Assembly (NCBI GenBank): GCA_050273025.1
Contig: CP158635.1
Coordinates: forward strand, 11,036,001 to 11,100,000
Direction of reading: 5' to 3'
DNA: 64,000 nucleotides
DNA from: Cenococcum geophilum
Taxonomy: Eukaryota
The notes beneath the pieces were generated by a model, which worked only from the letters and a program-made list of their open reading frames with translations, searched no databases and had not been told where the DNA came from. The stretch's first letter is position 1, and every line of letters starts with the position of its first letter. Below, in pieces: positions 1 through 51,923 of the stretch. The translations under genes were made by a program, and so were the position numbers.

Positions 1-3000
1 ATATTGTTAAGGCATACTATAATAAACTCATTAAGGTATTCTTCTAATACACTATTAATTCTTTTCTAAAATGTTATAGGTATATTTATTAGCCTAAATT
101 ATATAACTAATAGCTTATATAGTCCTTCTCTTAACCTAAAGGCTACCTTCTATTTATTACCTTCCTTAATTTTAATTTAATGGTACGCCTATCTTAGATC
201 TATCTTTATAAAGATTTGCGCGTTACCTATCTAATCTTAGATTTCGCTAATTAAGGGTAAAGGATACCTATCTTTCCGAGTAATGCTATTTAACTATCTA
301 TAGTTAATATATAGCCTAAGTTTTCTATTCTTTTTTAGTACGAATAATACTGGGTAACCTATTAATAACTATAATAGTCTAATATATCCCTTTTACAGGT
401 TCTCTTAGATAAACTCTTTAAGTACTCTAGACTCCTCTTAAGTAAGCTTATAGGTTAGAAAAAACCTTAGATTTATTCCTAGTTTTAACTCTATTTTATA
501 GTCCTATACTATATAATCTGCTAGCTTTTTACTTTCTAGGCTCTATAGTTTCTTACTATATTTATAGTATCTCTTTAGTACGTAACTTAAGCCTTACTTA
601 GTCTCTTTATATATTACTCTAACTTAGTATTATACTAACTTAGTTTACTATTATATTTTATATTATTAAGTATCTTTAATATTAACCTAACCTATAATCT
701 AATTAATCCTTAGGTTATATTCCTGTAACTAAGGTATACCTAATACTACCTTATCCTGTCCTAATAGTAGGATATTAAAAGACATCTTAATTTATCTTCC
801 TTTAATAGTTATCTAAATAGGTCCTTTTTTAAGATTAATAATCCCTCCTTTATAGGTTATTAGATCTCCTAAAATTGTAACTAATAGGTAAAGTTATTCC
901 TTCTATTTATAAGGTAATCCTATTTCTTTACTGCTATTAATAAAATATAGTTCCGTGTTACTCCACTATCTATTAGCGCTTTAAACTACTAATCTTACTA
1001 TTTAATCCTTAAATTTAGGTACTATCCTTAAATTCCTTTAAGGGTTTAAGGCTCTACTACTAGTTCCCTCTAGTCCTATAGGCCTTTACTTTTCCCAACT
1101 ATTAGCTGTTTAATCTTTATATACTTAGCTCGTTCTTTAACCAGTACTTAGTTTGCTTTTTATCTTCTATATACTATAGATATATATTCTTTAGGTATTC
1201 CTACTACTATTATTTATCTAAGTATTCTTCCGTAAAAAATCTTCCTAGTTAAAGTATTAGATCCCCAAACTCTTAGATCTCTATTAGATACTAGCTATAT
1301 ATATACTTAGCATTTCTATACTATTGCTCTTCTAGCGCCTAATATATCTTTATAGGGTATTTCCAATTCTTTTCTTTTAGATTTTTATGCATTTTATATA
1401 TATTGTCTATATATATAATCCATAATAGCGTATAATGTGCTAAGTGCTTTAGGTTAACTCTTAACTCGTCTTTATCTTTAAGTTTAAACCTCTATTATGT
1501 TAATCTAAACGTTATAACTTTATTTATAGGTACTAATATACACTTCTTACTTCTCTAGTCCTCTAATTATTCCTCTAAATTCTTTAACGTTATAATTAAG
1601 GCTCCTTTAATATAAGTTATGGCCTTCTCTATAATAGGGTAGTCCTAAATAACTTATTTATCCAACTACATATAAAAATCTTTTTATTTATTATTATGTC
1701 GTTACCTATACCACTTTTAGTACAGCTATTAGAGTATATATAGCTTATCTACAAGGAAGTATCTTCTTATTACTATATTATAACAGCCCTTTATATATCG
1801 TTTTTTAAACCTAGTAAGGATCCCTAGATCCTCTTTATTTTCCAGTTTAGTAAGCTACTTAGCTCTTAATATGCCTACTCTAAGCCTATTAGTAATTTTT
1901 TATATAGGTGCCCTATCCCTTATATAACCTAGTATACTAAATCTCTTATTTAGTTTCTATTCATGCTATACAATAATTCTTTACCTAAATTCTTCTATAG
2001 TTTCTTTTAGTTTAAGTCTTATAGATAGATCCTTAAAGTTATCCTGCTTCTTAATCTTAGTATTAATATTTTAATCCTCTTACTAAGCCTTACTCGCAAT
2101 TTCTTTAATAGTCCTTATTCTATTGCTAAAATCTTAGTCCTATAAGATTCTTAATCCTAAGCTTGCTTCCGTCTTAAGCTTTAATCCTATCTTAGTTTAA
2201 CTAGACTTTTGTGGTGTTCTTATCTCGTTTTAAGAGTCTTAAATCTCACTTATCTCGTCTTGAGAGTCTTATATTTTTAGGAAACTTCGTCCTAAGCTTA
2301 TTTATATATTACTAAACTGAGCCGTTACTCTACTCTATCGGTTATCGTCTATTATAGGTCCTTAAGCTTACTTTATCTTATCTTAAGAGTTTTAGTTATC
2401 TTATATCTCGTCTTAAGAATCTTAAGCCTTTGGCCTTTTGCCTTTATTAAGTGCCGAAGTAGTTTACTATCCTACTTCTCTTGCGTCTTATAAAGCAATA
2501 GATATTGTATCTAGTAGGGTCTTAATCCCTACTAATATTCCCTGTTCTATAGTGGAATTATCCTCTACCTCTTATATAATATCTCTAAGGTCTATATACT
2601 TTTAGTAAGCTGCCTTTATTACCTTATTATTACTAAATATTTCGCCTATATTAAATTTATTATCCTTAATGTCCGATTTACGAACTAGTTTATTAGTTCC
2701 TTTAAACTCTAATAATTTTAGCTCTTATGGCCAATAGCTTGCGCTATACTTAGCGTCTTTATAAATTTAGTATGCGTTATTATAATAGAACGCGAAACTT
2801 TTAATTAAACACTCTTTTGTTCCTTATAGTATATTATTATCCCTCTATATATATATATATATCGTCTACTAGTCTCGTTCCTTTTACTATATAGTAACTC
2901 TAACCACTCCTATAGTCTTTAACGTAATAACCCTATTTTTTGTAATTTATATAAACTCCTTCTTTAAACTATTTTTTTTATTATGGAGTCTGTCTAAATA

Positions 3001-3702
3001 TCTTCTGCTACTAAGATCCCTAGTTTAACCTCTGCTCCTTAGATCTTTAATTACTTAATCCTTATCCTCTAGGTTTCTATAATTTCTTATTTTACTTCTT
3101 AGATTCTTTAGTACTACTTAGGTCTATTAGCTCTGCGCTATACTATAGTTTTTAACTTTAACTTTATTAATGCGTATTCTGCGCCTTATATAACTATAAA
3201 ACTCTATCCTAACCCTTCTTAGTCTGCTCTCTTTAGTAGATCCTATTATTAATCTTAATTACTTAATTAATTAAATCTCTAAGAGTATCCGCATCTTCTA
3301 TTAGAATAATTACGTCCTAGACTTTTGCTTTAAGTCCCTACTTATACTGTGCCATAAGCGCTTTATTATTTTATTTGACCTATATTGCTAATATTTAAAA
3401 CTACGTTATATACTTAATTGCTAAAGTTCTTTATACTAGGTTTTAAAGCTTCCTTTTAGCCGTAGTAGTTACTTCTAGGTCCCTAAATATTTATATTAAT
3501 TATTCCATAAACCCGTTCTAACTTAAGAACATATACCGTACTTTTTGGTTAGTAGTTATTATGCCGTGCTCCTATACCTCCGTAAGGTAAGGTTTAAACT
3601 ACTTAAGTGCCCTTCCCGTTAAGAATAATCCTGCGTAAGCAACTTAATCCATAGGCGTTCCTAGCTTTACCCCTTCCTATATAACCTTAAAGTGCATTTA
3701 CG

Positions 3703-3889
3703 TATCACGGCACTGACCTAACACGTTGTTATAACTTAGTGTTGTCATGACACGAGCACGGACCTAACCCCTAAGCGACGTGTATATATACCGCCTCACC
3801 TCCTATATAGATCCTCACATGATACCGTTTGTCAATTATATACAGTTACCTCGTATATCGTACCTTAACAGTCCGCACGTACTATAACA
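3703..3889. mobile_element. Solo LTR (187 bp) inserted in the gag of A
   Basis: Ends TATCACGG...TATAACA (RIP'd TG..CA). TSD TTACG at 3698-3702 and 3890-3894. Absent from the homologous sites in B (~11550) and D (~31500). Confidence 0.85.
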
Positions 3890-4242
3890 TTACGTAAGGA
3901 ATCTTTTAAGCTTTAACTTCTCCCCTAAGAATTACTTAATTAAGGGTAACTTAACCTTAGCTACTCCGATCCCGTTAATCCTTTCTTTAAGTATCTTATT
4001 ATTGTCTATTAGTTAATTAACTATTTTCTATAGCTGTCTAATAGTAACTAGTTACGAGTTAGTATTTACTATACTGGTGTCATTACCTAATCCTAAGGTA
4101 GTCGCCGCTGTGGACGCCGTCGTAGCTACTACTTTTAGTGGCATATTATTTAACTTCTTTTACCGTAACCTTAGTAGTAAATATATAATAAAGCCTTATA
4201 GCAGGAACTATGGTGGGCTTATTAATAGGCTAGGTATATAGG

Positions 4243-7200
4243 TGTAACGGAACCTTGTAGTGGGAACTACGATGGGTTCTATTAATGGGCTAGGTGTGTA
4301 GGAAATGCAAGGCAGTAGTTAACAACGTAATAATAACTGGTGGAGTAGTTACCTAACAGATTAACTCCAATTATATTCTAAGAATTACTATAAGGAAGGA
4401 ACTATCTAGGTAGGGATTAAGGGTCCTTAAATACACAACCGTACTCCTATAAAATCCTTCTTATATATAATATACGTCTTATATATAAGGTACGTAAGTT
4501 CCTCTTGTTCCTCTCGTTTAATATATAGCATGTCATGTGACCTTAGTTACCATTCCTCGTTATATAGTTCTATGGGTTCTATCCTGGACTATGCTTATAT
4601 TAACTAACTAGCTTCTTCCAACTCCTTTCCTAGTAGTCGTAATATTGTACTTAAAGCGTCCGTAACACTATCTCCCTTCTCTTTATCTTTATCCTTAAAG
4701 ATTTAAAATATCTCTAAGTCGTTTACTAGAGGTGTAATATCTATCTAATTAATTTGGTTAATATTGTTACTTATTATACCTAAAGCAATTTCTTCTTTAC
4801 ACGCCCAACGTCGTGCCCGTACTATTGCTGCGATATTATCTTTTAGTAAGATTATGCCGTCTCCGTATTCTCGTTATACGAAAGAGGGGTTAGTCTATAT
4901 TGCGCTGGCGAGTCCTTCTTTATAGTAGCCGTCCTCTTACTCAGAGTGCACTAAAGCGAATATTTATTTGTCTTATAATGTTTACTTTACCTCTAATGCT
5001 AAATATACGCGATCTATTACTCTTAGTAGTCATCTAGTTCCCTAACTGATTTATTTTAAGGTCTTATATTTAATCTACTGCTATACGGCTAGATAGTGAA
5101 CTGTCTTAAGCCCTTATTAAGTTAGAACGTTCTTATAATGCGGAATAGAAGGCCCTAAATGCTCGCATCGCGGTGTCTACTTAATTACTTCGCCTTAAGA
5201 AGGTTTGTAAAAAGGTTTATTTTAAGGAGTAAAAGCTTATAGAACAAGGTCTTTAGGAACTGGGTAATAAGAGAACTGACTCTTCTCCTATAGTAAAGGG
5301 AATAACTCTAAGTAGTTCGGCAGTCGCTCTTTCTAGGTCCCCCTTAGGTGACTTATTCTTTAGCGATTCCCCTTTATTAATATTGCCTAACCTTTTTTCT
5401 TTTAATACTCCTATACCTTTTCTATAGCGTTTTTTAAATTTTCTAGTGGCTCCTAGGTAGTCTTATTATAGCCTATCCACTTTACCTTATACTATGTTTT
5501 ATCGTCGACGTCCTTATAGCTAACAATCTTTAAAACTTACCACTTGTCCTCTTCTTATCCTCTATACGTGTCTGCTTTATAGACTAGTAGCTTAACATCC
5601 CCATATACTGGCTCTAGTATCGCGATGTACTATATAGGGTAGATCTTCATTTTAGCTAGTAGGTTTAACTTAAACGTAACCGATAAAATCCTCTTTTTGA
5701 TTTTAAAAGGTCCTAGTCTAATATAGTCTAACTTCTTGCTTAGTTATTAACTCTTAAAATTTTTATATAGTAGCTATACTTTATCTCCCTCCTTAAGATC
5801 TGGTCCCTTAGATCTCTTAGCATTATAGTACCTTTTTATCCTTTGCTATACTACCTTTACTGTTTCCGTAAGGTCTATATAAAGATTCATTAATATCTCT
5901 ATCCTTTACTTAGCTGTGCTACTCGTCTTTTTTACTTAACGTGGCGATAATAAGGTCCTTGGCTTATATCTATAATTCGCCTTAAATAGTAACGTACCTA
6001 TTCCTTCTTATAGTGTCGCATTATATATAAATTATATAACCGGTAATAGCGATACCCAATTGTTTTATATATAATTAACGTAATACCTTAGATACTATTC
6101 TAGTGTCTAGTTTAATCTTTCTGTTTAACCATCTATCTGCGGATAATATGCGGTGGAAGTTACTACTTAAACTCCTTGCTCCGCTAAGAATACCTTCTAG
6201 AATATTGCTACGAATCTTAGATCTCTATCCAATATAATTTTACTTAGTACTCTATGTCTTATAAACACTTCTTTAATATAGATTCTAGCGATATCTTCCG
6301 CTAAGATTTCTTCCGTATATGCTATAAAGTATCCCCACTTCGTAAGCTTATCTACTATTACTAAGATTATATTGTAATCTTGTCCGGTAATAGGATCTCT
6401 TAACTTTAGTAACTTAATAATAAAGTCCTATAATATGACCTCCTATAGTCTTTCTAGTATTTTAACAGGTTGTAGCCCTCTATATGGCTTATGCCTTGTT
6501 GGTTTATTCCTTTAGTAATTTAGATACTCCTTAGTGACCTTCCTGGCTATCCTCCAGATTCCGTTAATAATGTACTCCTCCTAGAGTCTTAATACTAAGC
6601 CCGTAGCTCTATTATATTCTTAAGTTAGTCCCTTATAGAAGTCTTCCATAAACTACTCTGCTATACTCCTTAGGATGTACTTTACCTCTTAATTTTTATA
6701 TATATCTAACTATAGGTCTTCTAGCTATTCTTCTAAAATTCTCCGTGCCTAATAGCTTTTTAGTATCTCGTAGACTTTCTTTAATTTATTCTCTTAAGTT
6801 ACTGTAATCCTTAGATAATTGTACCTAATTAGTCTATCTATATCTTTTCGCAGTAAAGCCCCTAATGGCTTATCGTTATTTTATAATTTAGTCTTTTTAC
6901 TTAGAGCATCTGCTCGTGCATTCTCTATACCCTTAGTATACTAAATTTCGAAATGGTATTCTGTAAGCATCTCTACCCATCTAACCTGTCTTTAGTTAAG
7001 TTCCTTTATTATTAGGAATCCTATTAGGTTCTTATAATCCGTTTTAACTATAAATAGTTTCTCTATACCTTATAAGAATGCTTTCTATTTCTTTAATACT
7101 GTAACTATACTTAACAACTCCTTATTATAGATGTTATAGTTTAACTTTAGTAGTATTATCTTTCGACTATAATATGCCACTGGGTGCTATCTATCTGGAT

Positions 7201-10200
7201 GCCTTTATATAAAATATACTCCTAGTGTAAAGTCTAATATATCTATTTCTATAACCGTCTCTAGTCTTAGTTAATAGATCCTAAGAACTGGCTCCTAGGT
7301 AAATAACTCTTTAATTTTCTTAAAGAGTTCCTACTATTCCTCTCCCTATGCCTATAGTTCTTCTTTCTTTGTTAATCGCGTAAGTGGTTTAATATTTTTT
7401 AACCACTGCCCTATAAACCTTCTGTAGTAATTGCAAACCCCTAAAAACAATCTTAACTGCGTAATGTTCTCCGGTTCTTGCTAATTTACTATAGCCTCGA
7501 TCTTCTTTAGATCTATACTAAGTTGGCCTAGTTTAATAATAAATCTAACGAAATCGGTCTTCCTGATAAAGAACTCGTATTTCTTAATTGCTACTAGTAT
7601 CTATTCTTCCTATAGTCTCCTTAAGACCCATTTAACGTATTCCCCATATTCTTCCTTAGTTATTAAGTAGATAATAATATTATTAAGGTATACCATAACA
7701 AATTTATTTAAGTGTTCTCTTAATACATTATTAATACGCTTTTAGAACGTTGCTAGTACGTTTATAAGCCCGAATTACATAACCAATGGTTTATATAGTC
7801 CTTCCTTTAACCTAAAGGCTGCCTTCCATTCGTCGCCTTTCTTAATTCTAATCTAATAGTACGCCTATCTTAGATCTATCTTTATAAAGATTTGCGTGTT
7901 GCCTATTCTGTCTTAGATCTTACTAATTAAGGGTAAAGGATACCTATCCTTTCTGGTAATGCTGTTTAACTATCTATAGTTAATATATAGCCTTAGTTTA
8001 CCATCCTTTTTTGGTATAAATAGTACTAAATAACCCGCTAATGACTATAATGGTCTAATATATCCCTTTTATAAGTTTTCCTAGATAAACTCTTTTAATA
8101 CTCTACCTTCTTCTTCGGTAAGCTTATAGATTAAAAAGAACCTTAGACTTGTTCCTGGTTCCAATTCTATTTTATAGTCCTATACTGTATATTCTAACAG
8201 CTTTTCACTCTTAGGTAACTATAGTTTCTTACTATACTTATGGTATCTTTTTAGTATATAGCTTAGCCCTTTTTCCGTTTCTTCGTAGGTCACTCCTACT
8301 TAGTACCATACTATCTTGGCCTGTTGTCGTATTCTACAGCGTCAAGTATCCCTAATATTGACCTAACCTATAATCTAATCGATTTTTAGATTATATTCCT
8401 ATAACTAAGGCATTCCCAATACTGCCTTATTATTCCCTAATAGTAATATATTAAAAGACATCTTAATCTGTCTTCCTTTAATGGTTATCTAAATAGGTCC
8501 TATTTTGAGATTAATAATGCCTCCTCTATAGGTTATTGGATCTCCTAAAATTGTCACTAATAGGTAAGGACGTTCCTTCTATCTGTGCGGTAATCCTATT
8601 CTTTTAACTGCTATTAGTAAGATATAGTTCCTTATCGCTCCACTATCTATTAATGCCTTAAACTATTGATCTTGCCATTTAACTCGTAAATTTAGGTATT
8701 GTCCTTAAATTCCTTTAAGGGTCTAAGGCTCTACTACTAGCTCCCTCTAGTCCCGTGGGCCTCCACTTTTCCTAACTACTGGCTACTAGATCCTATTTAT
8801 ACTTAGTCTAACTTAGGCTAATACTTAGTTCGTTTTTTGTCTTTAATATACCATAGATAGGTGTTCTCTAGATATTCCCACCATTGTCGTCTATCTAGGC
8901 ATTCTTCCGTAAGGAATCTTCCTAGTTAAAGTATTAAGTCCCCTTATTCTTAAACTTCTACTAGGTACTAACTATGCATATACTTAGCGTTTTAATACTT
9001 TGCCTCGTCCATCATCCAATATATCCTTATTAGATACTTCCAATTTTTATCTTTTAGTGCTCTATATATATTATACGCATTATCCACATACGCTATCCAT
9101 AATAGTGTATAATATGCCTAATATCTTGGGTTAATTCTCGGCTTATCCTCGTCCTTAAGCTTAAACCTTTCTCATATTAATCTAAGCGTTACGACTTCGT
9201 TCGTAGGTACTAAGATACGCCTTTCGCTTCTCTAGTCCTCTAATTACTCCTCTAAATCCTTTAATATTATAATTAAGGCTCCCTTAATATAAGTTATAGC
9301 CTTCTCTATAATCGGGTAGTTCTAGATAACTTTTTCGTCTAACTACATATAGAAATCCTCCTACTTATTATTATGCTGTTGCCTATACCACTTTTAATAT
9401 AGCTGCTTAAGTATATACGGCTCGTCCGTAAGGAAATATCTCTTCATTACTACGTCGTAATAGCCTTTAGTATATTGTTCTTCAAACCTAGTAAGAATCC
9501 CTAGATCCTCTTCTTATTCTAGTTTAGTAAGCTACTTAGCTTTTAGTATGCCTATTCTAGGCCTATTAGTAATCCTTTATACTAGCGCTCTGTCCCTTAT
9601 ACGTCCTAATATACTAGATCTCTTATCTAGTTTCTATTCTTGCTATAAGGTAATTCTTACTCTAAATTCCTCCATGGTTTCTTTTACATCACATCTTATA
9701 AGTAGATCCTTAAAGTCCCTTTACTTTTTAATCTTAGTATTAACTTTTTAATCTTTAAGCTAAGCACTATACTCCCCTAGTAAATCCTCTGGGTCTATAT
9801 ATCTATCTCCCAGTTTAATTACTATTTATATTATAAATTCCCTAATCTATAAAGAAGCTCCTTATCTCTTATTTATAGGTATTCTAATTTATACTCCAAA
9901 TTCTTAACCCCTTAGATTCTTTAATCCTAAGCTTACTTCTATCTTAAGCCTAGCTCTAACCTTAGTTTAACTAGGCTTACTTAGTGTCCTCATCTTATCT
10001 TAAGAGTCCTAGATCTTACTTATCTCGTCTTAAGAATCTTATACCGTTAGGAATTCTTATCCCAAGCTTATTTGTATATCTTTAAACTAAGCTACTACCC
10101 TACTCTATCGGTTTTCGTCTGTTATAGGTCTTTAGGTATACCTTATCTCGTCTTAAGAATCTTAATTATTTCTTATCTCATCATAAGCATCTTAAGCCTT

Positions 10201-12269
10201 TAGCCTTTTACCTTTATCGAGTAGTAAGCTAGCACTAGCAGTCGTTTGCTTGCTTAATCATCTCTAGATATTACTCCTTCTATCTTATAAAGCAATAGAT
10301 ACTATATCTAATGGTGTTATAATACCCGTTACTAAACCTTGCTCTATAGCGGTCTTAGTCTCTACTTTTATTGCATTATTAAGGTTTAGATACCCCTAGT
10401 TGGTTTCCTTACTATCCTTATCGCTATTAATTAATAAGTGCTCTAACTTCATTATTATTATTGCTAATCGTTGTCCGTATATTGCTATAATATCTTAATC
10501 TAGCTTATAGAGTTAATCTTATTCTTTATCTAACTCTATAGTTCCTCTAAATCCTTTTAACTCTAGCTCCTATGGCCAATAGCTTACGCCGTACTTAGCG
10601 TCTTTATAAATTCGGTATACATTATTATAGCAGAACGCAAAACTTTTAATTAAACACTCTTTTGTTCCTCGTAGTATACTATTATCCCTCTATATGTATA
10701 TATCACATACTATTAGTCTAGTTCCCTTTATTATATAGTAACTCTAACCATCTTTATAATCCCTTATAAAGTAACCCTATTTTCCACAATTTATATAAGC
10801 TCTGTCTCTAAACCATTAACTTTATTATAGAGTCTACCTAAACATCTTCTGCTGTTAAGATCCCTAGTTTAGCCTCTACTCCCTAGTCCTATAATTACTA
10901 AATCCTTAACCTCTAAGTTTCTATAGTTTCTTACTCTATCTCTTATAGGCTTCTTTAGTACCACTTAGGTCTATTAGTTCTACGCCATACTATAGTTTTT
11001 AACTTAGCTTTGGTCATTACGTATTCTACGTCTTATATAACTATAAAACTCTATCTTAGCCCTTCTTAGCCTGTTCCCTTTAGAAGATCCTATTATTAAT
11101 CTTAATCGCTTAATCTATTAATTCCCTTAGGGTGTCCGCATCTTCTATTAGAATAATTATATCCTAGACTTTAGCCTTAAGTCCTTATTTATACTATACT
11201 ATAAGCGCCCTATCGTTCCACTTAACTTATATTACAAGTATTTAAAACTATATTATATACTCAATTGCTAAAGTTCGCTATATTAGGTCCTAAAGCTTTC
11301 TCTCTACTATAGTTATTACTTCCAGGTCCCTAAATATCTATATTAACCGTTCCGTAAATCCTACCTAGCTAGAAAATATAAATCATACTTCTTAATTAGT
11401 AGTAGTTATCCCATTAGCCTATATCTCTATTAAGTAGGGTTTAAACCATTTAAGTGCCTAACCCGTTAGGAATAGTCCCGCGTAGGCTATCTAGTCCATT
11501 ATTATGGCTAACTTAGCCCCTTCTTATATAACTTTAAAATGTATCTGCATTAGAAATCCTTTAAGCTTTAATCTCTCCCCTAAAAATCGTTCAATTAATA
11601 GTAACTTAACCTTTACTACTCCAATTCCATTAAGTCTATTTTTAAGTACTATATTATTTTCTGTTAATTAATCCACTATTTCTTATAATTGTCCTACCGT
11701 TACAGGTTGTTGCGAGTCAGTGTCCGCTATACTAGTGTCACCCCCTAACCTTAAAGTAGTTGCCGCCGTCAATGGCGTCGTAGTGGCTGCTTTTGGTGGT
11801 ATATTGTTTAACTCTACGTTAATACTATAACCGGGTAGTGATTATGTAACGGAACCTTGTAGTAGGAACTACGATAGGTTCTATTAATGGGCTAGGTATA
11901 TAGGAAATGCAAGGTAGTAGTTAATAACGTAATAACAACTAGTAGAGTAGTTGCCTAACAGATTAACTCCAATTATATTCTAAAAATTACTATAAGGAAG
12001 AAACTATCTAGGTAGGGACCGAGGGTCCTTAAATACACAACCATACTCCTATGAAATCCTTCTTATACGTGATATACGTCTTATACATAAGGTACATAAG
12101 TTCCTCTTATTCCTCTTGTTTAACACGTAGTATATTATATAACCTTAGTTACCATTCCTCGTTATATAGTTCTACGGATTTTATCCTAGACCGTGCTTAT
12201 ATTAACCAACTAGCTTCTTCCGACTCCTCTCCTAGTAGTTATAACATTGTACTTAAAGCGTCCGTAACA
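4243..12269 (-). mobile_element. Full-length RIP'd Ty3/Gypsy chromovirus B (gag-PR-RT-RH-IN-chromodomain)
   Basis: 425-bp LTRs at 4243-4667 and 11845-12269 (TGTAACGG..CCGTAACA). TSD ATAGG at 4238-4242 and 12270-12274. PPT next to 4668. YLDD-type motif ~7675-7695, integrase HPQTDGQTER ~6115-6150, chromodomain ~5430-5550. Confidence 0.95.
4776..5460 (+). pseudogene. Antisense two-exon gene in B: Zn2Cys6-like cluster plus coiled coil (~209 aa de-RIP)
   Basis: Exon 1 (4776-5004) reads de-RIP MPK..MPSPCSRCxKEGLVC..QPSSCSECTKANIRSSCDV. Putative 55-bp intron at 5005-5059. Exon 2 is in frame, and its internal stops are all TAA/TAG. Confidence 0.7.
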
Positions 12270-12828
12270 ATAGGTATAAAATAGTTAACAATATAAATAT
12301 AACTAGTGGAGTAGTTGCCTAATAGATTAACTCTAATTATATTCTAAGATTTACTAAAAAAAGAGAAGAACTATCTAGATAGGGACTATAGTCCTTTAAA
12401 TACATAACTATACTCCTAAGAAATCCTCCTTATAGGTAAAGTACGTCTTATATATAAGGTACGTAAGTTCCTCTTATTCCTTTTGTTTAATACGTAGCAT
12501 ATTATATAACCTTAGTTACCATTCCTCGTTATATAGTTCTATTAGCTCTGTTCTGGACCATGCCTTAATTAACTAACTAGCTGCTTCCAACTCCTCTCCT
12601 AGTAGTCGTAATATTGTACTTAAAGCGTCCGTAATAATAGACTTATATAAATATATAAAGATCTAGAATTAATAGTATATTACCATTTTGTTAAGGTACT
12701 AAGATCCTAAAGGCCTCCTAGTAGGATTTTAATTTTCTTAATTGTTTTAATAGCCTTAATAGGCTCCTAGCAGGCTTTTAGCAGGATTTTAATTTTCTAA
12801 TTATTCTAATCGTCCTAATTGTCCTAAT

Positions 12829-29976: not shown

Positions 29977-30377
29977 AGTTCTTTCTTTTGTAGTAAATCT
30001 TAGAATACAATTAGAGTTAATCTATTAGGCAACTACTTTACTAGTTATTATTACGTTATTAACTTCTTATTTACCTATATACCTAGCCTATTAATAAGTC
30101 TACCATAGTTCCTACTACAAGGCTTTGTTATACATTTACTACTAAAGTTACGGTATTAATAAAGTTAAACAATATGCCATTAAAAGCACTAGCTACGACG
30201 CCATTAACGGCGGTAACTACTTTAAGATTAGGTAATAACACTAGTATAGCAGATATTAACTTATAGTAACTAGTAACGGTTGGATAACTATAAGAAATAG
30301 TTAACTAACTAACAGAAAATAATATAATATTAAAAAATAAGATTAACGGGATTGGAGAAGCGAAGATTAAGCTACTA

Positions 30378-31448
30378 CAGCCGTTTCAATATTATCGGTA
30401 AAAATCGCCAAGCCGCACGACGCGCATCGCCCGCTCGATCAAAACAATATACCCCCTTATAGTCCCACCAATATAGCTCTATATTTTATAAATAGAGGCC
30501 TATTTTATAGCTTTATTCTAGGGCTATAAAATAAGCCCTTATTTATATAATTTAGGGCTATTTTGGTAGAGTTATTGGGGGTACTTATTTCTAGGAATGG
30601 AGGGGTCGGATTAGTCAGCGCAGAGCCTCAATTTAAGTTTTACAGCCACCCCCTATAGCCTTACTAATACAGCTCTATATTTAATAAATAAAGTCCTATT
30701 TTATAGCCCTAGAATAGAGCTATAAAATAAGCCTTTATTTATAAAATATAGAGCTATATTAGTGGAGCTAGAGGGGGTATAATGCCGTTTTGGACATATT
30801 GGTAAAAATCGCCAAGCCGCAGCAGCACATCACCTTCTTATTAAAACAATCCACCCCATATAATTCCACCAATATTAATCCAATTTATATATATAGGGGC
30901 CTATTTTATAGCCCTAGAATAGGGCTATAAAATAGGTCTTTATTTATTAAATATGGAGCTGTATTAGTAGGGCTATATAGGGTATACTGCTGTTTTAGAA
31001 AAATTAATAAAAATCACCGAGCCGCAACAGCACATTACCCCCATATAATTCCACCAATATTAATCCAATTTATATATATAGAGGCCCATATTATAGCTCT
31101 ATTCTAGGGCTATAAAATAGGACTTTATTTATTAAATATAGAGCTATATTAGTAGGGCTATAGGGGGTGCTTTGCAATGGCCGCAAAATCTAAATTGAGG
31201 CTCTGCGCTGACTAATCCGACCCCTCTATTCCTAGAAATAAGTACCCCCAATAACTCTACCAAAATAGCCCTAAATTATATAAATAAGGGCTTATTTTAT
31301 AGCCCTAGAATAAAGCTATAAAATAGGCCTCTATTTATAAAATATAGAGCTATATTGGTGGGACTATAAGGGGGTATATTGTTTTGATCGAGCGGGCGAT
31401 GCGCGTCGTGCGGCTTGGCGATTTTTACCGATAATATTGAAACGGCTG
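30378..31448. mobile_element. Non-coding foldback-type DNA transposon (1071 bp, TA TSD) in the gag of D
   Basis: 258-bp near-perfect TIRs at 30378-30635 and 31191-31448, starting CAGCCGTTTC. TA at 30376-77 and 31449-50. Removing it restores the gag frame. Confidence 0.92.
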
Positions 31449-34400
31449 TATTAATTGAAAGGTACTTAGGGGAAAGATTAAAACTTAAAGGATTCCTTAT
31501 ATAAATGCACTTTAAAGTTATATAAGAAGGGGCAAAGCTACTAATACCTATAGATTGAATAGCGTATGCGGGACTATTCCTATTAAAAAGGGCACTTAAA
31601 TAGTTTAAACCTTACCTTATAGAAATATAAGCGAATAGTATAATAACTACTAATTAAGAAGTACGGTTTATATTTATAAGCTAGAAAGGGTTTATAGAAT
31701 AATTAATATAGATATTTAGAGACCTAGAGGCAGTAACCATAGCGGAAAGAAAACTCTAAAACATTATATAATAAACCTTAGTAATTAAGTATATAACACA
31801 GTTCCAGACGTTAGTAATATAAGTAAAGTGGAATAATAAGGCGCTTATGGCATAATATAAGCAAGGACTTAAGGCTAAAGTCTAGAATGTAATTATCCTA
31901 ATAGAAAATATAGATACCCTAAGGGAACTAATAGATTAAGTAATTAAGATTAATAATTAGATCTACTAAAGGGAACAGGCTAAGAGAGGCTAGAATAGAG
32001 TTTTATAGTCGTATAAGGCGCAGAGTACGCAATAACTAAAGCTAAGTTAAAAAATTATGGTATAGTGTAGAGCTAATAGACCTAAGTGGTACTGAAGAAT
32101 TTAAGAAGTAAAATAAGAAATTATAGAAACCCAGAGGATAAAGATTAAGTAATTAAAGGTTTAAAGAGCAGAGGCTAAACTAGGGATCTTAGTAGCAGAA
32201 AACGTTTAGGCGGATTCTATAGTAAGAAAAATGGTTTAAAGAGGGAGCTTATATAAATTGCGGAAAATAGGGTTATTATATTAGAGATTATAGAAGTGGT
32301 TAAAGTTACTATATAGTAAAAGGAATAAGACTAGTAGATAATATATACGTATAAAGGGACAATAATATACTGCGAGGAATAAAAGAATGTTTAATTAAAA
32401 GTTTTGCGTTTTGTTACAATAACATATACTAAATTTATAAGGATGCTAAGTATGGCGCAAGCTATTAGCTATAGGAGCTAGCACCTATAAAATATAGAGG
32501 AACTAACGAACTAGTTTACAGATTGGATATTAAGGATAATAAATTTAATATAGGCGAAACATTTTATAACGATAAGGCGATAAAGTCCGCTTACTAGGAG
32601 CGAGTAGACCTTAGAAATATTATACTAGAGGTAGAGGATAATTCTACTACAGAATAGGGAATATTAGTAGGGATTAAAACCCTACTAGACACAATGTCTA
32701 TTGCTTCGCGAGATGTAAGAGAAGTAGGACAGCGAGCTACTTCGGCACTCAATAAAGGCAAAAGGCTAAAAGCTTAAGATTCTTAAAACGAGATATAAAA
32801 CGACTAAGATTCTTAAGACGAGATAAGGTAAGCTTAAGGACCTATAATAGACGATAACCGATAAAGCAGAGCAATGGCTTAGTTTAGTAATATATAAATA
32901 AGCTTAGGATAAAGTTTCCTAAAGGTATAAGATTCTTAAGACAAGATAAGTAAGATTTAAGACTCTTAAGATAAGATAAGAATACTAATAAAGCCTAGTT
33001 GGACTAAAGCTAGAGTAAGGCTTAAGATAGAAGTAAGCTTAGGATTAAGAATCTAAAGGGGTTAGGAATTCGGAGTATAAATAAAAACACCTATAACTAA
33101 GAGGTAAGAGGCTTCTTTACAGATTAGAGAATCTATAGTATAAATAGTAACTAGATTAGGAGATAGGTATATAGACCTAGAAGACTTACTAGGAGAATAT
33201 AGTATTTAGCCTAAAGATTAAAACGTTAATACTAAGATTAAGAAGTAAGAAGACTTTAAGGATCTATCTACGAGATATAAACCAAAAGAAACTATAGAAG
33301 AATTTAGACGAAGAATTATTGCATAGTAGGAATAGAAACTAGATAAGAGATCTAGTATATTAGGACGTATAAGGGACAGAGCGCTAGTATAAAGAATTAC
33401 TAATAGGCTTAGGGCAGGCACATTAAGAGCTAAGTAGCTTACCGAATTGGAAGACAAAGAGGATTTAGGGATCCCTACTAGGTTTAAGGAACAATATATA
33501 AAAAGCTATTACAACGTAGTAATAAGAAGATACTTCCTTACGGACAAGCCGTATATACTCTAGTAGCTATACTAAAAGTAGTATAGACAACGATATAACA
33601 ATAAGTAGGAAGATTTCTATATATAGTTAGATAAAAGAGTTATCTAAAACCACCTAATTATAGAGAAGGCTATAACTTATATTAAAGGAGCCTTAATTAT
33701 AACGTTAAAGGATCTAAAGGAACGATTAGAGGACTAAAGAAGTAAAAGACGCATTTTAGTACCTGCGAATAAAGTTATAACGTTTAGATTAGTATAATAA
33801 AGGTTTAAACTTAAAGATAAAGACAAGTTAAGAGTTAACCTAAAGCACCTAGTATACTATACGCTATTATAAATTATATATATAGATAATATATACGAAA
33901 TATATAATAATTTAAAAAAAAATTGAAAATACCTTATAAGGATATATTAGATAATAGATAAATAATAATATAGGAATGCTAAGTATATATATAAATGGCA
34001 TCTAGTAAAAGCCTAAGAGGAAGGGGATTTAATACTTTAGCTAGGAAGATTCCTTATGGAAAAATACTTAGATAAATAATAGTAGTAAGAATACCTAGAG
34101 AATATATATCTATAATATATTAAAGATAAAAAGCAAATTAGGTATTGGCTAAAGAGTAAGCTAAGTATAATAGGATTAAGTAGCTAATAGTTAGGAAAAG
34201 TAAAGGCCTATAGAACTAAAGGGAGCTAGTAGTAGAGCCTTAAACCCTTAAAGGAATTTAAGGATAACACCTAAATCTATAAGTTAAATAATAAGATTAG
34301 CAGTTTAAAGCGCTAATAGATAGTAGAGTAACGCGGAACTATATCTTACTAATAGTAGTTAAGAGAATAGAATTACCTTATAGATAGAAGAAATAACCTT

Positions 34401-37400
34401 ACCTATTAGTTATAATTTTAGGAGATCTAATAGCCTATAGAGGAGGGATTATTAATCTTAAAACAGGACCTATTTAGATAACTATTAAAGGAAGATAAAT
34501 TAAGATGTTTTTTAATATCCTACTATTAGGACGGGATAAGGTAGTATTAGGCATGCCTTAGTTACAGGAATATAATCTAAAAATCAATTAAATTACAGGT
34601 TAGGTTAATATTAGAAATACTTAATACTATAAGATGCGATAGCAAACTAAGTTAGTATAGTACTAAGTTAGAGTAATATATAAAGAGACTAAGCGAGGCT
34701 TAAGTTATATACTAAAGAGATACTATAAGTATGGTAAGAAACTATAGAGCCTAAAAAGTAAAAAGCTAGTAGATTATGCAGCATAGGACTATAAAATAGA
34801 GTTAGAACTAGAAATAAATCTAAGGTTCTTTCTAACCTATAAGCTTACTTAAGAGGAGGCAAGCGTACTTAAAAAGTTTATCTAGGAAAACTTATAAAAA
34901 GGATACATTAGACTATCACAGTTATTGGTAGGTTATTTAGTACTATTCGTACTAAAGAAAAATAAAAAGCTTAGGTTATGCATTAACTATAAGCAGTTAA
35001 ATAGCATTACTTAAAAGGATAGGTATCCTTTACCCTTAATTAGCAAAATCTAAGATTAGATAAGTAACGCGTAAATCTTTATAAAGATAGATTTAAGATA
35101 GGCGTACCATCAGATTAGAATTAAGGAAGGCAATAAATAAAAGGCAGCTTTTAGGTTAAGAGAAGGACTATATAAACTATTAGTTATATAATTTAGATTA
35201 ATAAATATACTAGTAACGTTTTAGAAACGAATTAATAGTATATTAGGAGAACATCTTAATAAGTTTATTATAGCATACCTTAACGATATTATTATTTACT
35301 TAATAACTAAGGAAAAATATAGAGAACACGTTAAATGGGTTTTAAAAAGACTATAAGAAGAATAGATGCTAGTAGTAATTAAGAAATGCGAGTTCTTTAT
35401 AAGGAAGACTAATTTTATTAAATTTATTATTAAACTAGGTTATATTAGTATAAACCTAAAGAAAATTAAAGCTATAGTAAGTTGGCAAGAACTAGAGAAT
35501 GTAATATAGTTAAGGTTATTTTTAGGGTTTTGCAACTACTATAAAAGGTTTATAGTATAGTAGTTAAAGAATATTAAACCATTTACTAGGCTTATAAAGA
35601 AAGAGAAACTATAGGCATAGGGAGACGAATAAAAGAAGTTATTTAAAGAACTTAAGGAATTGTTTACCTAGGAGCTAATCCTTAAAATCTATTAACTAGG
35701 GTTAGACACGGTTGTAGAAACAGATGTATTAGACTACGCACTAGGAGTATATTTACTATAGAAGTATAAGGACGCATAGCATCCAGTAGCATATTATAGT
35801 AGAAAGATAACACTACTAGAGTTAAATTACGACGTCTATAACAAGGAGTTATTAGGTATAATTATAGTACTTAAGAAATAGAGAGCATTCTTATAAGGCG
35901 TAGAAAAACTATTTATAGTTAAAACAGATTATAAAAACCTAACGGGGTTCCTAACGATAAAAGAACTTAACTAAAGATAAGTTAGACAGGCAGAGATGCT
36001 TATAGAATACTATTTTAAAATTTAGTATACTAAGGGAACTAAGAATATAAGAGTAGATGCACTTAGTAAAAGAGCTAAACTATAAAATAGCGAGAAACTA
36101 TTAGGAGCAATGCTACGCAGAGATAAGGATAGATTAATTAGATATAATCACCCTAAACTAGTAGTAACTTAAGAGGATAATAAACTAGGAAGAGTCTATA
36201 AAACACCAGAAAGCTTTTAAATATAGAAAATTCTAAAAGTATAGCTAGAAGATCTATAGACGGATATATATAAGAATTAAGAAGTAAAGTATATCCTAAG
36301 AAGCATAGTAGAGTATTTTATAAAAGATTTTTATAAGGGAATAACTTAAGGACATAATGGAGCAATAGGCTTAGTATTAAGACTTTAAGAAGAATACATT
36401 ATTAATAGAATCTGGAATATTATAAGGAAAGTAATAAAGGAATATCTAAACTGTTAAAGAAATAAACTAACGAGGTATAAGCTATATAGAGGGCTATAAC
36501 CTATTAAAATACCAGAGAGACTATAGGAGGTTATATTATAGGACTTTATTATTAAGTTACTAAAGTTAAGAGATCCTATTACCAGATAAGATTATAACGT
36601 AATCTTAGTAATAGTGGATAAGCTTATAAAGTGGGGATATTTTATAGTATGCATAAAAGAAATCTTAGCGGAGGATATCGCTAAAATCTATATTAAAGAA
36701 GTGTTCGCAAGATATAGAGTACTAAGTAAAATTATATTGGATAGAGATTTAAGATTTATAGTAGTATTCTAGGAGGTATTCTTAGCGGAGTAGGGAGTTA
36801 GAGTAGTAACTTTTACCGTATATTATTCGCAGATAGACGGTTAAATAGAAAGATTAAATTAGATGCTAGAATAGTATCTAAGATATTATATTAATTATAT
36901 ACAGAATAATTAGGTATCGTTATTACTAGTTATATAGTTTATATATAATATAACACTATAAAAAGAAATAGGTACATTACTATTTAAGGCAAACTATAGA
37001 TATAAGCTAAGAATATTGTTATTACTAAGGCAAGTAAAGAAGACAAGTAATATAGTAAAAGAAAGAATAAAGATATTAATAAATCTTTATATAAACCTTA
37101 TAGAATTAGTAAAGAAAGTATAAAAGAGAATAAAAAAGTACTATAATGCTAAGAGATCTAAGGGACTATATTTTAAGGAGGGAGATAAATTATAGCTACT
37201 ATATAAAAATTTTAAGAGTTAACGACTAAGTAAGAAGTTAGACTACGTTAGACTAGGACCTTTTAAAATTATTTAAAGGATTTTACTAGTTACGTTTAAG
37301 CTAAACCTACCAGCTAGAATAAAGATCTACCCTATATAGCATATTATAATACTAGAGCTAGTATATAGGAATATTAAGCCACTAGGCTATAAAGCAGACA

Positions 37401-37508
37401 TATATAGAGGATAGGAAGAAGATAAATGGTAAGTTTTAAAGATCGTTAGTTATAAGGACATTAACGATAAAATATAGTATAAGGTTAAGTAGATAGGCTA
37501 TACTAAGA

Positions 37509-38215
37509 CTACCTAGGAACCACTAAAAATTTTAAAAAAACGCTATAGGAAAGGTACAGGAGTATTAAAAGAGATTAGGTTAGGCAGTATTAATAAAAAA
37601 GGATTACTAAAAAATAAATTACCTAAGGAGGACCTAAGAAGAGCAGTTACTAAACTACTTAAATCTATTTCCTTCTTAAATAGAGGAAAATCCGTTCTTT
37701 TGTCACTAAGTTCCTATAAACCTTATTCTATAAGTTTCTACTTCTTAAAACAGACCTTCTTACAAACCTTCTTAAGATAGATTAACTGAGTGGACGCCGC
37801 AAAATAAGACTTAAGGGCCCGTTACTAAGCATTGGCAGCCTCTTATTTAGTATTATAAGAACAACACAGTTCTACTAGGGTAACTAATAGTTTATTATCT
37901 AGCCGAGCAGCAGTAGATTAAACATAAAACCCTAAGATAAATTAATTAAGGAACTAGACAACTATTAAGAGTAATAGGTTGCGTATATTTAGTATTAGAG
38001 ATAAAGCAAACGTTATAGGACGAACGAATATTCGCTTTAGTGCACTCTAAGTAAGAGGACGGTTATTGTGAAGATAGACTCGCTAATATAATATAAACTA
38101 ACCCCTCTTTTAAACAATAAGAACATAGAGACGGTATAATCTCACCTAGAGATAATATTGCAGTAATAGTGTAAGTATAATAAGCGGTTAAGGAAGTAGA
38201 AGAAGCTTTAGGTAT
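37509..38215 (-). pseudogene. Antisense Zn2Cys6-like/coiled-coil gene, copy in D
   Basis: Homologous to 4776-5460. Cys1 and Cys2 (TGT) and Cys5 (TGC) are intact. Intron acceptor TCTTAG|GG intact at ~37930. Confidence 0.7.
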
Positions 38216-39059
38216 AATAAGTAACAATATTAACCAAATTAATTAGATGGATATTATACCTCTAGTAAACGACTTAGAGATATTTAGAATCTTTAAGGAT
38301 AAAGATAAAAAGGAGGGAGATAGTGTTACGGACGCTTTAAGTACAATATTATAACTACTTAGAAAGGAGTTAGAAGAAGCTAGTTAGTTAATTTAGGCAT
38401 AGTCTAAAATAGAGCTAATAGAACTATATAATAAGGAATAGTAACTAAGGTTATATAACGTAATCTATATAATCTATAGGATCTATATAATCTATAATAG
38501 AGTAGATAAAATATATATACCTTGTGTATAAAGGGGATTTCTTAAGAGTATAGTTGTATATTTAAAGGACCATAGTCCCTACCTAGATAGTTCTCTCCTT
38601 TATAGTAAATCTTAGAATATAATTAGAGTTAATCTATTAGGCAACCACTCCACTAGTTATTATTACGTTGTTAACTTCTTATTTACCTATATACCTAGCC
38701 CATTAACAAGTCCACCGTAGTTCTTACTATAAGGCTTCGTTATAAGGGGGATAAAGTATAGCTATTATATAAAAAAATTTACAAGTTAATAACTAAGTAA
38801 AAAGTTAGATTATATTAGACTAGGACTATTTAAAATTATAGCTAAGATTTTAAAAGTTATATATAGACTTAACTTACTAGTAAATATAAAGATCTACTCT
38901 ATATAGTATATTATAATACTAAAGCTAGCATATAAAGATATAGAGCTATTAGTTTATAAAGTAGATATATATAAAGAATAAGAGAAAGATAAATAGTAAG
39001 TTTTAAGGATATTAATAATAGAATATAATATAAAGTAAAGTAGATAGGCTATAATAAGA

Positions 39060-39752
39060 CTACCTAAAAACTACTATAGAATTTAGAAAAAGCTATTAAA
39101 AAGGTATAAAAGTATTAGAAGAGAATAGGTTAAGTAATATTAAAAAGGAGCTAGAGATAAAAGGATTAGTTAAAGGTAATAAATAAGCTAGATTATCTAA
39201 AGGATCTACTACTAGCGTATAAACTTTTTCCGCCTTTTCTAAATTAGAATTCTTTTTAGCTTCCTTAGCCTTAAGCTTATAAAGACCTTACTCTATAAAA
39301 TATAACTCTTTTAAATAAACCTTCTTATAACCCTTTATAAGACGGCTTAGTTAAGTATAAATATCTATTTAAGCTTTTAGAGCCTAAGACGCCTTATTAA
39401 AATAACGCTAAACCTTAGTAAAGGCCTTAGCTAGCTTACCCTCTAGTCTTTTGGCCGCTACTAATATATAAAACCCTAAAATAAATTAGATAAAGTATTA
39501 AAGAATTATAAAGAATTATAAAACGTATATACTTAGCGTTAGAGATAGATTAAATATTATAGGATAACTATATATTTGCTTATATATACTTAGTATAAAA
39601 AAAGGTTAGTAATTAGATAGAGCTATAATTATAGTATATACTAACCTTTTCTTTATATAATAAGAATAGAATAATATAACTTTACTAAGTAATAAAATAA
39701 ATATTACTAGCTAGTTATAATAATTAAATATAGAAGATTTAATAAAAGGTAT
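39060..39752 (-). pseudogene. Antisense Zn2Cys6-like gene, diverged copy in H
   Basis: Same Cys spacing after de-RIP and same intron position (TTTTAG|GG at ~39475). Boundaries approximate. Confidence 0.55.
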
Positions 39753-40280
39753 TAGGAATAATAAAGGTTATTAAAATAAAAATAAAAATACTATACCTTT
39801 AATAGATAACTTAAAAATAAGAGATATCTTTAAGAATAAAAATAAAGATAAAGGGGATAGTATTACGGACCTTATATTAGCAGTAGTAGAACTACAAAAA
39901 GAGATATAAATAGGTTAGTTAAAATAGTATAAAAGGCACTAGAGTTAATTAAGATATAAAATAAGGGGTAGCTAAGTTATATAGTTAGTTATATTATAAG
40001 TTTAGAATATAGAAATATAGAAATATAGGAATATAATATACTAACGTACTAACGTACTAATATACTTGGTATATTTCTTAGACGCAGTATTATATATTTA
40101 AAGAACTATATTCTTTGCCTAAATAGTTCTCTTCTTTATAGTAAATCTTAGAATATAATTAGAGTTAATCTATTAGGCAACCTACTCTACTAGTTATATT
40201 TACTTATTTAACTATTCTATACCTATATACCTAGCCTATTAATAAGCCTAATATAGTATTTCCTATAAGGCTTTATTATA

Positions 40281-50547: not shown

Positions 50548-51923
50548 CAAGGGGGCCTCATGAGCGGGCTGCTCGCCCTCCCTGCTAGCGCTGGCGTGGC
50601 TTTAGCTATATGCAGCGTATGAATAATCCACAGAAGCCACCAGAATACACCAGACTAGCTAGATAACATATAAAACAACGGCAGGGGGGCCTTGTATCTT
50701 GTATCATAAAAATGCCGAATCTTGTACGCCGGTAGCGAGGCCACCATCCACCAAAAATCCAATACCCAATTCTTCGAGATCTAGGCACCCGTCTCTCTTA
50801 CCGTGAGCGTAATATTGCTTATTCCCTCTCTCAATACGCTAGTTGGAATCACCACAGGATTGGTGCCTCCCTTGGTATACCTTATAGAACTATATTAAAT
50901 TCTCTCCAGAATCCATAGACCCCTTAAAAGCAGAGGGGAAGGAAGCCGAATATTGATACCCTAGCACGACAGCGTCTAATTGCACGAGCGAAGCAGGACC
51001 GTTGGCACCGACAGAAATCCTTCGAGGAGATTGCATTTCTTGAAGGAATCTCTGCCTGCAAGCGATCTTTATATAAGGCCTTTGAAAAGGAGGGCTACTT
51101 CCGCCGCGTTGCAACAGAGAAGCCCCTTATTACGCCTAAACAACGAGAGGCCCGTCTTAAATGGGCCTATTCTCATCTAGAATGGACTCCCGAGATATGG
51201 GCAGCAGTAATTTGGACAGGTGAAGCGTCCGTTCGAACTGGTGGAGGCCAGATTTTTGTTACTAGAAGCGCCGAGGAGAAATACAATATTAATTGCTGTG
51301 TCCCCAAATTTAGGGGGTATTTAAGCTGGATAATCCACGGTAGTATTTCCCATGGGAATAAAGGACCTCTAGTTGTTTTTGAGAAGGACTAGTTAATTAA
51401 GCTGGGATACAAGAAAAAGACAATAAATGGCGACGTCTACTGTACCTATATATGCCCCAAAATTAAGACTTTTGCATGGGAATTATGGCAGACACTATAA
51501 CACCAGCCTATTCTTGTGGAGGATAATGCCTTAATTTACTCAGCAAAAGTAACGCGCCTTGGCTGGGAACAGAACGGCATGCTAGTAATGGAATGGCCAG
51601 CGAATTCCCCTGATTTGAATCCAATTGAGAACGTCTGGAGGCTATTAAAGGGGAGGATACAACGCCGGTTCCCTAAAACAAATGAGGAAGTACGGTAGTA
51701 CGCTAAGGAGGAATGGGAGAAGCTCGAACCTGAAGAATTTGAAAAGTATACAGGCAATATGAGGGAGCGCTGCTTGGCTGTAATTGCTGCAGATGGCGGC
51801 CCAACGAAATATTAGTTATTGGTTACTGAATAAGCACTGTTTTCATGTGGCGATGTGGCAATTGTAAGCACTAATGGAGGCGCTAGCAGGGAGGGCGAGC
51901 AGCCCGCTCATGAGGCCCCCTTG
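50548..51923 (+). mobile_element. Tc1-family (DD34E) transposon, 1376 bp
   Basis: Perfect 44-bp TIRs at 50548-50591 and 51880-51923. TA TSD at 50546-47 and 51924-25. Confidence 0.96.
50712..51815 (+). pseudogene. Tc1 transposase (367 codons) with about six premature stops
   Basis: One frame, including supplied ORF 51516-51698: EDNA..WPANSPDLNPIENVW (34 residues between D and E), ending DGGPTKY*. Confidence 0.93.

Follow-up and report, generated by a model that had tools for sequence, protein, structure and literature searches.

A RIP-degraded Ty3/gypsy chromovirus of Cenococcum geophilum carries the relic of a probable spliced antisense gene for a six-cysteine, long-helix protein

We analysed a 64,000-nucleotide stretch of the Cenococcum geophilum genome (GenBank assembly GCA_050273025.1, contig CP158635.1, forward-strand positions 11,036,001 to 11,100,000), hereafter the window, with all coordinates counted from its first letter. 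An initial annotation, made from the letters of this DNA, had proposed that a chromovirus in the window carries a spliced antisense gene for a Gal4-like protein. We found that the stretch concerned, on the plus strand at 4776-5427 in the element that we call copy A, is a copy, killed by repeat-induced point mutation (RIP), of a genuine third gene of a Ty3/gypsy chromovirus lineage. It lies opposite gag-pol and has two exons with a 55-nucleotide (nt) intron between them. Comparison with its relatives makes it very probable that this is a real, conserved and spliced accessory gene of the lineage. Its place is between the polypurine tract with the 3′ long terminal repeat (LTR) on one side and the pol chromodomain on the other, on the strand opposite pol. 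The predicted product of the intact relatives has about 190-220 residues and consists of a short basic N-terminus, a six-cysteine module, a linker of about 10 residues, a helix of about 100 residues and an acidic, hydrophobic tail of Ser, Pro, Asp and Phe. The six-cysteine module is presumably zinc-binding. That the element brings its own Gal4-like regulator is an attractive hypothesis, now testable, and not a result.

The gag-pol genes of copy A are on the minus strand. A Pfam search of the translation of 5249-9499, with stops read through as X, gave gag-asp_proteas, RVT_1, RT_RNaseH, SH3_Tf2-1 and a weak Chromo match, and because of these predicted domains copy A is assigned to the Ty3/gypsy chromoviruses. 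On the opposite strand, exon 1 of the antisense gene runs from 4776 to 5004 and matches 52 database open reading frames (ORFs) as well as the database proteins P0086 and P0092. At 4776, where the start had been placed, many relatives have the ATG of an 'MPK..' beginning and copy A itself has a relic ATA; a second, internal ATG lies at 4854. The six-cysteine module occupies 4866-4976 with the spacing C-x2-C-x6-C-x13-C-x2-C-x8-C, just as first read: in the plus-strand frame starting at 4701, the codons at 4866, 4875, 4896, 4938, 4947 and 4974 are TAT, TAT, TAT, TAC, TGC and TAT (Y, Y, Y, Y, C and Y). Two TAG stops interrupt exon 1 at 4923-4928, and its last base is T5004. The intron (5005-5059, phase 1) starts with ATACGC and contains CTAAC at 5042-5046, and its removal joins T5004 to G5060 and G5061 to form TGG (Trp). 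All of these features of the intron had been described correctly, but its termini in copy A are AT..AA, the AG acceptor being found in copy B, a second element of the window, and in 75 of 79 copies. Exon 2 (5060-5427) encodes the long helix and then the Ser/Pro/Asp/Phe tail, ends with a TAG stop at 5425-5427 and has 27 database relatives (E<=0.001). With six internal TAA/TAG stops in exon 2, the gene of copy A carries 8 stops in total, and both its donor and its acceptor splice sites are mutated.

The relatives used for comparison came from one metagenome scan, in which 329 were confirmed and 80 loci retained. Exon 1 was compared in 90 copies (88 matches in the metagenome loci and 2 window copies). 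Positions 2-6 of the cysteine module were solely TGY or TAY in 90/90 copies, and all six cysteines were retained in 19 of them. At position 1, TGY or TAY was found in 73/90 copies and Leu in 17/90; the Leu readings are attributed to misalignment next to an indel of one residue (PS-C versus PSPC/PSLY). The open database proteins P0086 and P0092 have the full C-x2-C-x6-C-x13-C-x2-C-x8-C pattern, and at the first two positions the TAT codons of copy A correspond to TGT in copy B. Furthermore, in the 52 database ORFs, found with exon 1 of copy B as query, every one of the six positions showed a mixture of Cys and Tyr among the rows. Since TpG to TpA is the direction of RIP, the codons identify the six positions as ancestral cysteines, which bears out the proposal that the tyrosine codons of copy A are former cysteine codons. 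By the same RIP logic, a seventh 'Cys' (NVC) in some copies is a former Arg codon (CGY to TGY).

The intron was compared in 79 copies, comprising 77 exon-1/exon-2 locus pairs and window copies A and B. It was found at the same codon in 79/79, with a length of 55 nt in 75 copies, 127 nt in three and about 130 nt in one (L066). The donor was GT in 18 copies and AT in 61, the donor G being open to RIP because it follows T. The acceptor was AG in 75 copies and AA in three, L066 having been mis-detected by the acceptor pattern. An intact GT..AG intron was present in 17 of the 79. Splicing of the sense genomic RNA cannot remove an intron that lies in antisense, and every new copy therefore inherits it. 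In addition, eight database proteins (P0086, P0092, P0057, P0063 and P0088-P0091) cross the junction as predicted (..DAEW|SRVQ..). P0084, on a 120,785-nt contig, begins inside the intron (..LSVVG|SRVQ..), whereas in P0088, found on contigs of about 1 kilobase (kb) and placed in the same 90%-identity cluster, exon 2 follows directly on exon 1; the two proteins are identical at 125 of 126 exon 2 residues. The joined forms are best explained, on these alignments, as spliced antisense transcripts.

Selection was assessed from transversion polymorphism in 83 aligned copies, transversions being used because RIP yields transitions only, and the counts given here are variable columns at codon positions 1/2/3. 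The exon-1 frame, including 30 codons ahead of the internal ATG, gave 25/14/45 (p=2.9e-6). The part of exon 2 outside the pol overlap gave 26/21/43 (p=1.8e-5) and the next 86 nt of exon 2 gave 6/4/16 (p=0.0013). The intron was without period (7/7/6, p=0.94). A sliding table revealed that the favoured genomic phase moves by one base exactly at the intron, and exon 2 indels of 4, 11 and 15 residues were in frame throughout. The third-position transversion peaks and the in-frame indels argue that both exons were under purifying selection as protein during the diversification of the family. The claim of a spliced antisense gene in this chromovirus lineage is thereby upheld by the eight exon-joined proteins and the periodicity in both exon frames. 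The cysteine motif, the intron position and the two frames go beyond chance, being kept in two further window copies and in 88 copies elsewhere.

These data bear directly on the possibility of a chance open frame, in which TAA/TAG would be read as Gln/Trp and TAY as Cys in AT-rich, mutated DNA. Nearly any stop can be explained in DNA affected by RIP, and the pol frame too is readable far past its likely end. Moreover, when the raw translations of the antisense gene in the window copies were searched against Pfam with stops read through as X, no family was matched. Against this stand the natural open proteins with the predicted sequence, the independence of the transversion test from RIP and the change of frame exactly at the intron. 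A chance frame is refuted by the open database proteins (P0086 and P0092) and the transversion test, and we regard it as extremely improbable.

Several findings nevertheless weigh against a spliced, protein-coding antisense gene. The open forms come solely from short contigs (941-1,629 nt), which may be RNA or DNA. The complete genomic pairs of exon 1 and exon 2 were all closed, with 2-13 stops each (60/60), and intact genomic copies were not found among them. The junction of P0097 is odd and one residue longer (..DAEC-TFH-VRS.. compared with ..DAEW-SRVQS..), as if most of the intron had been deleted or another splice site used. Six of the joined forms (P0057, P0063 and P0088-P0091) start at the same internal Met (..N-M-R-S-x-C..) past the fifth Cys, for which the ends of the contigs, a stop further upstream or another form of the transcript may be responsible. 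The last 144 nt of exon 2, encoding the tail (reference positions 700-843), were without period in the antisense frame (8/12/15, p=0.25), and the pol-frame residues opposite them are nearly invariant; conservation of the tail is more readily attributed to pol, which is encoded opposite. Separately, the initial annotation had advised a look for the splice junction in RNA; across 4200-6200, in one raw RNA run and three contig sets with the same species labels, there was no 5004/5060 joint, the depth over 4736-5405 was at most 1.65 per bin, and coverage was confined to LTR parts. All three window copies of the antisense gene are dead relics without visible transcription.

The end of pol in copy A (5195-5575, minus strand) comprises the chromodomain at about 5430-5575, a C-terminal tail and a probable TAA stop at 5195-5197. 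In codon tables of the 83 copies, conservation of the pol frame extends to a TAA common to 78/82 copies, and the TAA at 5195-5197 is most likely the pol stop. Given this stop, exon 2 and pol overlap by about 233 nt, or about 76 codons. An overlap of the exon 2 tail with the end of pol had been noticed at the outset, and it proved larger than first thought. Among the metagenome copies, 19/88 had too little flank for the position of pol to be examined; in 69/69 testable copies the C-terminal part of pol lay on the opposite strand just downstream of the antisense gene, in a tail-to-tail arrangement. A minus-strand frame at 5253-5462, free of stops over 69-72 residues, is the mirror image of the open exon 2 tail and is likewise open in locus L003 (5460-5678). 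This minus-strand ORF was rejected as a part of pol, its frame differing from that of the chromodomain and mirroring the exon 2 tail.

An overlap of this length also fits a role for the antisense RNA rather than for a protein, with a transcript from the 3′ LTR pairing with genomic RNA and feeding small RNA or copy-number control. The 1,423-nt contig of P0092 must reach about 700 nt past the stop codon, and Botrytis gypsy elements are described, in the part of PMC8365987 that deals with them, as rich sources of small RNA. However, the codon periodicity in both frames, the in-frame indels and the invariant six cysteines point to selection on a protein, and we consider it improbable that the RNA is what matters. 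An RNA role could exist alongside the protein role.

The preferred reading, a protein-coding accessory gene, can be followed in the intact relatives. P0092 has 239 residues as called and about 189 from the Met of 'MPSC'. Upstream, its open frame runs on through the sequence complementary to the polypurine tract and reaches about 30 nt into the LTR (window bases 4658-4669); if the P0092 contig is a transcript, transcription would start in the 3′ LTR. An AlphaFold model of P0092, built on a 35-row alignment, has a single helix at about residues 100-195 with a predicted local distance difference test (pLDDT) score of 95-99, whereas the cysteine module scores 50-60 and the tail is likewise poorly defined. 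The helical nature of exon 2 is supported in this way, and its reading after reversal of RIP agrees with the intact proteins P0058, P0085 and P0086. The coiled coil that had also been suggested is plausible. The occupancy of the heptad a/d positions of the helix was 0.625 compared with 0.548 in shuffles, and 35/500 shuffles reached the observed value, a weak result. Asp, Ser, Pro, Phe and Leu are abundant in the tail, which is acidic and hydrophobic. In the databases, one helix fragment of this family, P0077, bears the name 'vacuolar-type H+-ATPase subunit I/STV1', which looks like a mis-annotation from helical repeat composition; the other fragments are unnamed or 'hypothetical' ORFs.

The architecture of the protein, with a cysteine head, a short linker, a long helix and an acidic tail, resembles a miniature Gal4. 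The six N-terminal cysteines are arranged as CxxC-x6-C ... CxxC-x8-C, with loops of 2/6/13/2/8, and the helix begins about 10 residues past the last Cys. The Gal4-type family Zn_clus (PF00172) was the commonest weak Pfam match, obtained with 18/19 intact domains at E<=10 (best E 0.0017). The product could accordingly be read as a true Gal4-type Zn(II)2Cys6 member, a miniature factor that would combine a binuclear cluster with a coiled coil for dimerisation and an acidic tail for activation and would bind the element's own LTR. Membership in this family, which the initial annotation had favoured, was not borne out. The Zn_clus scores of P0086, P0092, P0097 and the L001 domain were 13.6, 8.1, 9.4 and 13.8 bits, and no displayed score for these four reached the gathering cut-off of 21 bits. 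In the alignments displayed where the stretch passed, only profile positions 18-37 of 39 were covered and the first Cys triad fell on the second half of the profile. When the 80 loci and the window were scanned in all six frames, the strict consensus C-x2-C-x6-C-x5-12-C-x2-C-x6-8-C, as given in the initial annotation, gave 0 matches and no true Zn_clus gene, the pattern being missed because the third loop has 13 residues, one above the consensus. Gal4-type clusters have a basic run between Cys2 and Cys3, but only one or two basic residues are found there in this family (AKEGLV and AEKKLV).

Structure-based searches gave a similar picture. Profile searches against solved structures returned 0 and 5 rows, with no zinc-cluster protein among them. 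In a Foldseek search with the full model there was no match at E<=0.001; GAL4(Cd) 1aw6 did appear as the second of two rows, yet with E=9.6 and a probability of 0.02. The cysteine module did not reach a confident fold, and the cysteine domain modelled alone had a mean pLDDT of 52.4, too poor for a fold search. The protein also differs from Gal4-type factors in lacking the fungal middle-homology region, in having fewer than 220 residues and in being encoded by a retrotransposon. Together with the Pfam scores and the strict scan, the profile searches speak against the zinc-cluster part of the proposal. We consider a true Gal4-type member rather unlikely on the sequence features at hand; that the protein binds DNA in the manner of zinc-cluster factors is possible but doubtful.

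A second domain family, DUF3716 (PF12511), suggests a different explanation. To our knowledge, nothing is known of the function of DUF3716. It matched fewer members than Zn_clus did (6/19 intact domains at E<=10, best E 0.004), and the displayed scores of 15.4 bits (P0094) and 12.5 bits (L001) are below its gathering cut-off of 22 bits. However, in both displayed rows the match covers the whole 59-position profile and the whole cysteine module. DUF3716 proteins, such as REP9-1 and REP9-2, are presented in PMC8232023, in its account of a Zymoseptoria Class II transposon, as accessory genes of that transposon; they are likewise a fungal Cys domain carried by a transposon, but their host element is of another class. 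The nearest Atlas clusters are Ascomycota proteins without a Pfam family, with scores of 0.87-0.88, below 0.9, and serve as a lead only. On this evidence the gene would be real and its cysteine module another transposon-associated domain, perhaps related to DUF3716, that serves the element without specific DNA binding; the protein could, for example, bind the element's RNA, Gag, integrase or a host silencing factor. We put this forward as a tentative possibility.

If the gene acts as a regulator of its own element, an antisense mRNA would start inside the 3′ LTR and would be spliced by removal of the short GT-AG intron. The spliced mRNA would yield a zinc-binding, self-associating nuclear protein, and this protein would regulate the element that encodes it. 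The most specific form of the proposal, in which the spliced mRNA encodes a minimal zinc-cluster transcription factor that binds DNA through its six-Cys head, self-associates through its helix, has an acidic tail and acts on the element's own LTR, appears unlikely. HBZ of human T-cell leukaemia virus type 1 (HTLV-1), a regulator translated from an antisense mRNA that is spliced and begins in the 3′ LTR, offers a parallel. HBZ is, however, a basic leucine zipper (bZIP) protein of an animal retrovirus with an unrelated sequence, and for the fungal gene a start in the LTR is a prediction. If an LTR-acting zinc-cluster factor were real, fungal retrotransposons would have their own regulator, with a logic like that of retroviral HBZ or Tax, and might be a source of new host zinc-cluster factors.

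Boty-like gypsy elements were reportedly found by Zhao in 2011 (Virology 417:248) to carry a further antisense gene, brtn, in the interval from pol to the 3′ LTR. The initial annotation had stated that no functional description of such a gene was known; a fungal antisense extra gene having been published in 2011, this remark was too strong. No paper that describes a zinc-cluster-like protein encoded by a fungal retrotransposon turned up in full-text literature searches, which did not extend to Zhao 2011. Where they treat BcGypsy1/Boty-like elements, PMC8365987 and PMC4227169 cite brtn, and the former reports it missing from the current B05.10 Botrytis annotation. According to the relevant section of a 2020 review (PMC7264820), antisense ORFs between pol and the 3′ LTR occur in Grande1, RIRE2, Retand and PvRetro13 and in Boty of Botrytis and Sclerotinia, and their function is stated there as not known.

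The antisense gene described here shares with brtn, as portrayed in those passages of PMC7264820, PMC4227169 and PMC8365987, the character of an extra gene of an ascomycete chromodomain gypsy element, located opposite gag-pol in the interval from pol to the 3′ LTR. This likeness is one of slot and orientation and is drawn from descriptions, not from sequences. The plant ORFs (Grande1, RIRE2, Retand and PvRetro13) have the same slot, orientation and conservation within the family in the account of PMC7264820; they belong, however, to plant lineages without a chromodomain, and they too are likened here by slot, not by sequence. We found the brtn-type position in window copies A and B and in 69/69 testable related copies, and conservation within the family in the 329 metagenome relatives and the purifying selection on both exons. 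The gene adds one more case to the antisense accessory genes of gypsy elements, an arrangement already known. Such extra genes of LTR retrotransposons, first known in plants 25 years ago and in fungi from 2011 onwards, are an annotation blind spot; this one will continue to be overlooked or wrongly called by repeat annotation and gene prediction. What is added here is a clear fungal gene model of two exons and a conserved intron, evidence of selection that is independent of RIP, and natural intact proteins with a six-cysteine head and a 100-residue helix. With this model it becomes testable whether a retrotransposon brings its own DNA-binding regulator.

AT-rich DNA, with a GC content of 0.22-0.40 per kb, makes up the first 48 kb of the window. 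The dinucleotide signature of the elements, judged by the usual RIP index thresholds, is that of RIP, with TpA/ApT of 1.6-1.7 and (CpA+TpG)/(ApC+GpT) of 0.10-0.46. Comparison of the window with itself revealed a minus-strand tandem array consisting of an internal region at 1-4242, an LTR at 4243-4670, an internal region at 4671-11844 and an LTR at 11845-12272. The 3′ LTR of copy A (4243-4670, minus strand) is a direct repeat of 11845-12272 with 89% identity, and it is also an LTR of the neighbouring tandem element at 1-4242. Immediately ahead of this LTR, at 4671-4690, the minus strand reads AAAGATAAAGAGAAGGGAGA, and its position and composition suggest that it served as the polypurine tract. 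A further LTR copy at 12282-12640, with 85% identity, adjoins the 5′ LTR at 11845-12272, and the whole of 1-12640 forms a tandem array of gypsy elements with LTRs in common between neighbours.

Copy B, a second full element, lies at 29977-38742 with gag-pol on the plus strand. Its antisense gene is on the minus strand at 37543-38215, with exon 1 at 38215-37987, an AT..AG intron at 37986-37932 and exon 2 at 37931-37543; its cysteine positions read C, C, Y, Y, C, Y, and 7 stops were counted over the matched parts. Copy C (38745-40244), the 3′ end of a remoter relative with 66% identity, abuts the end of copy B and has a GC content of 0.22 and the strongest RIP signature of the window. It contains a relic of the same antisense gene, of the P0057 subtype and heavily RIP-mutated, which was located by alignment on the minus strand at 38960-39860; its frame-1 translation ends in ..LVVDP..LLNLFSSNTFIPF, like P0057. 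Finally, a GC-richer block of the window contains a 154-residue ORF (50928-51392, plus strand) with a match to HTH_Tnp_Tc3_2 (E 2.9e-8), a Tc1/mariner-type transposase domain, and this match therefore suggests a DNA transposon beside the retrotransposon field.

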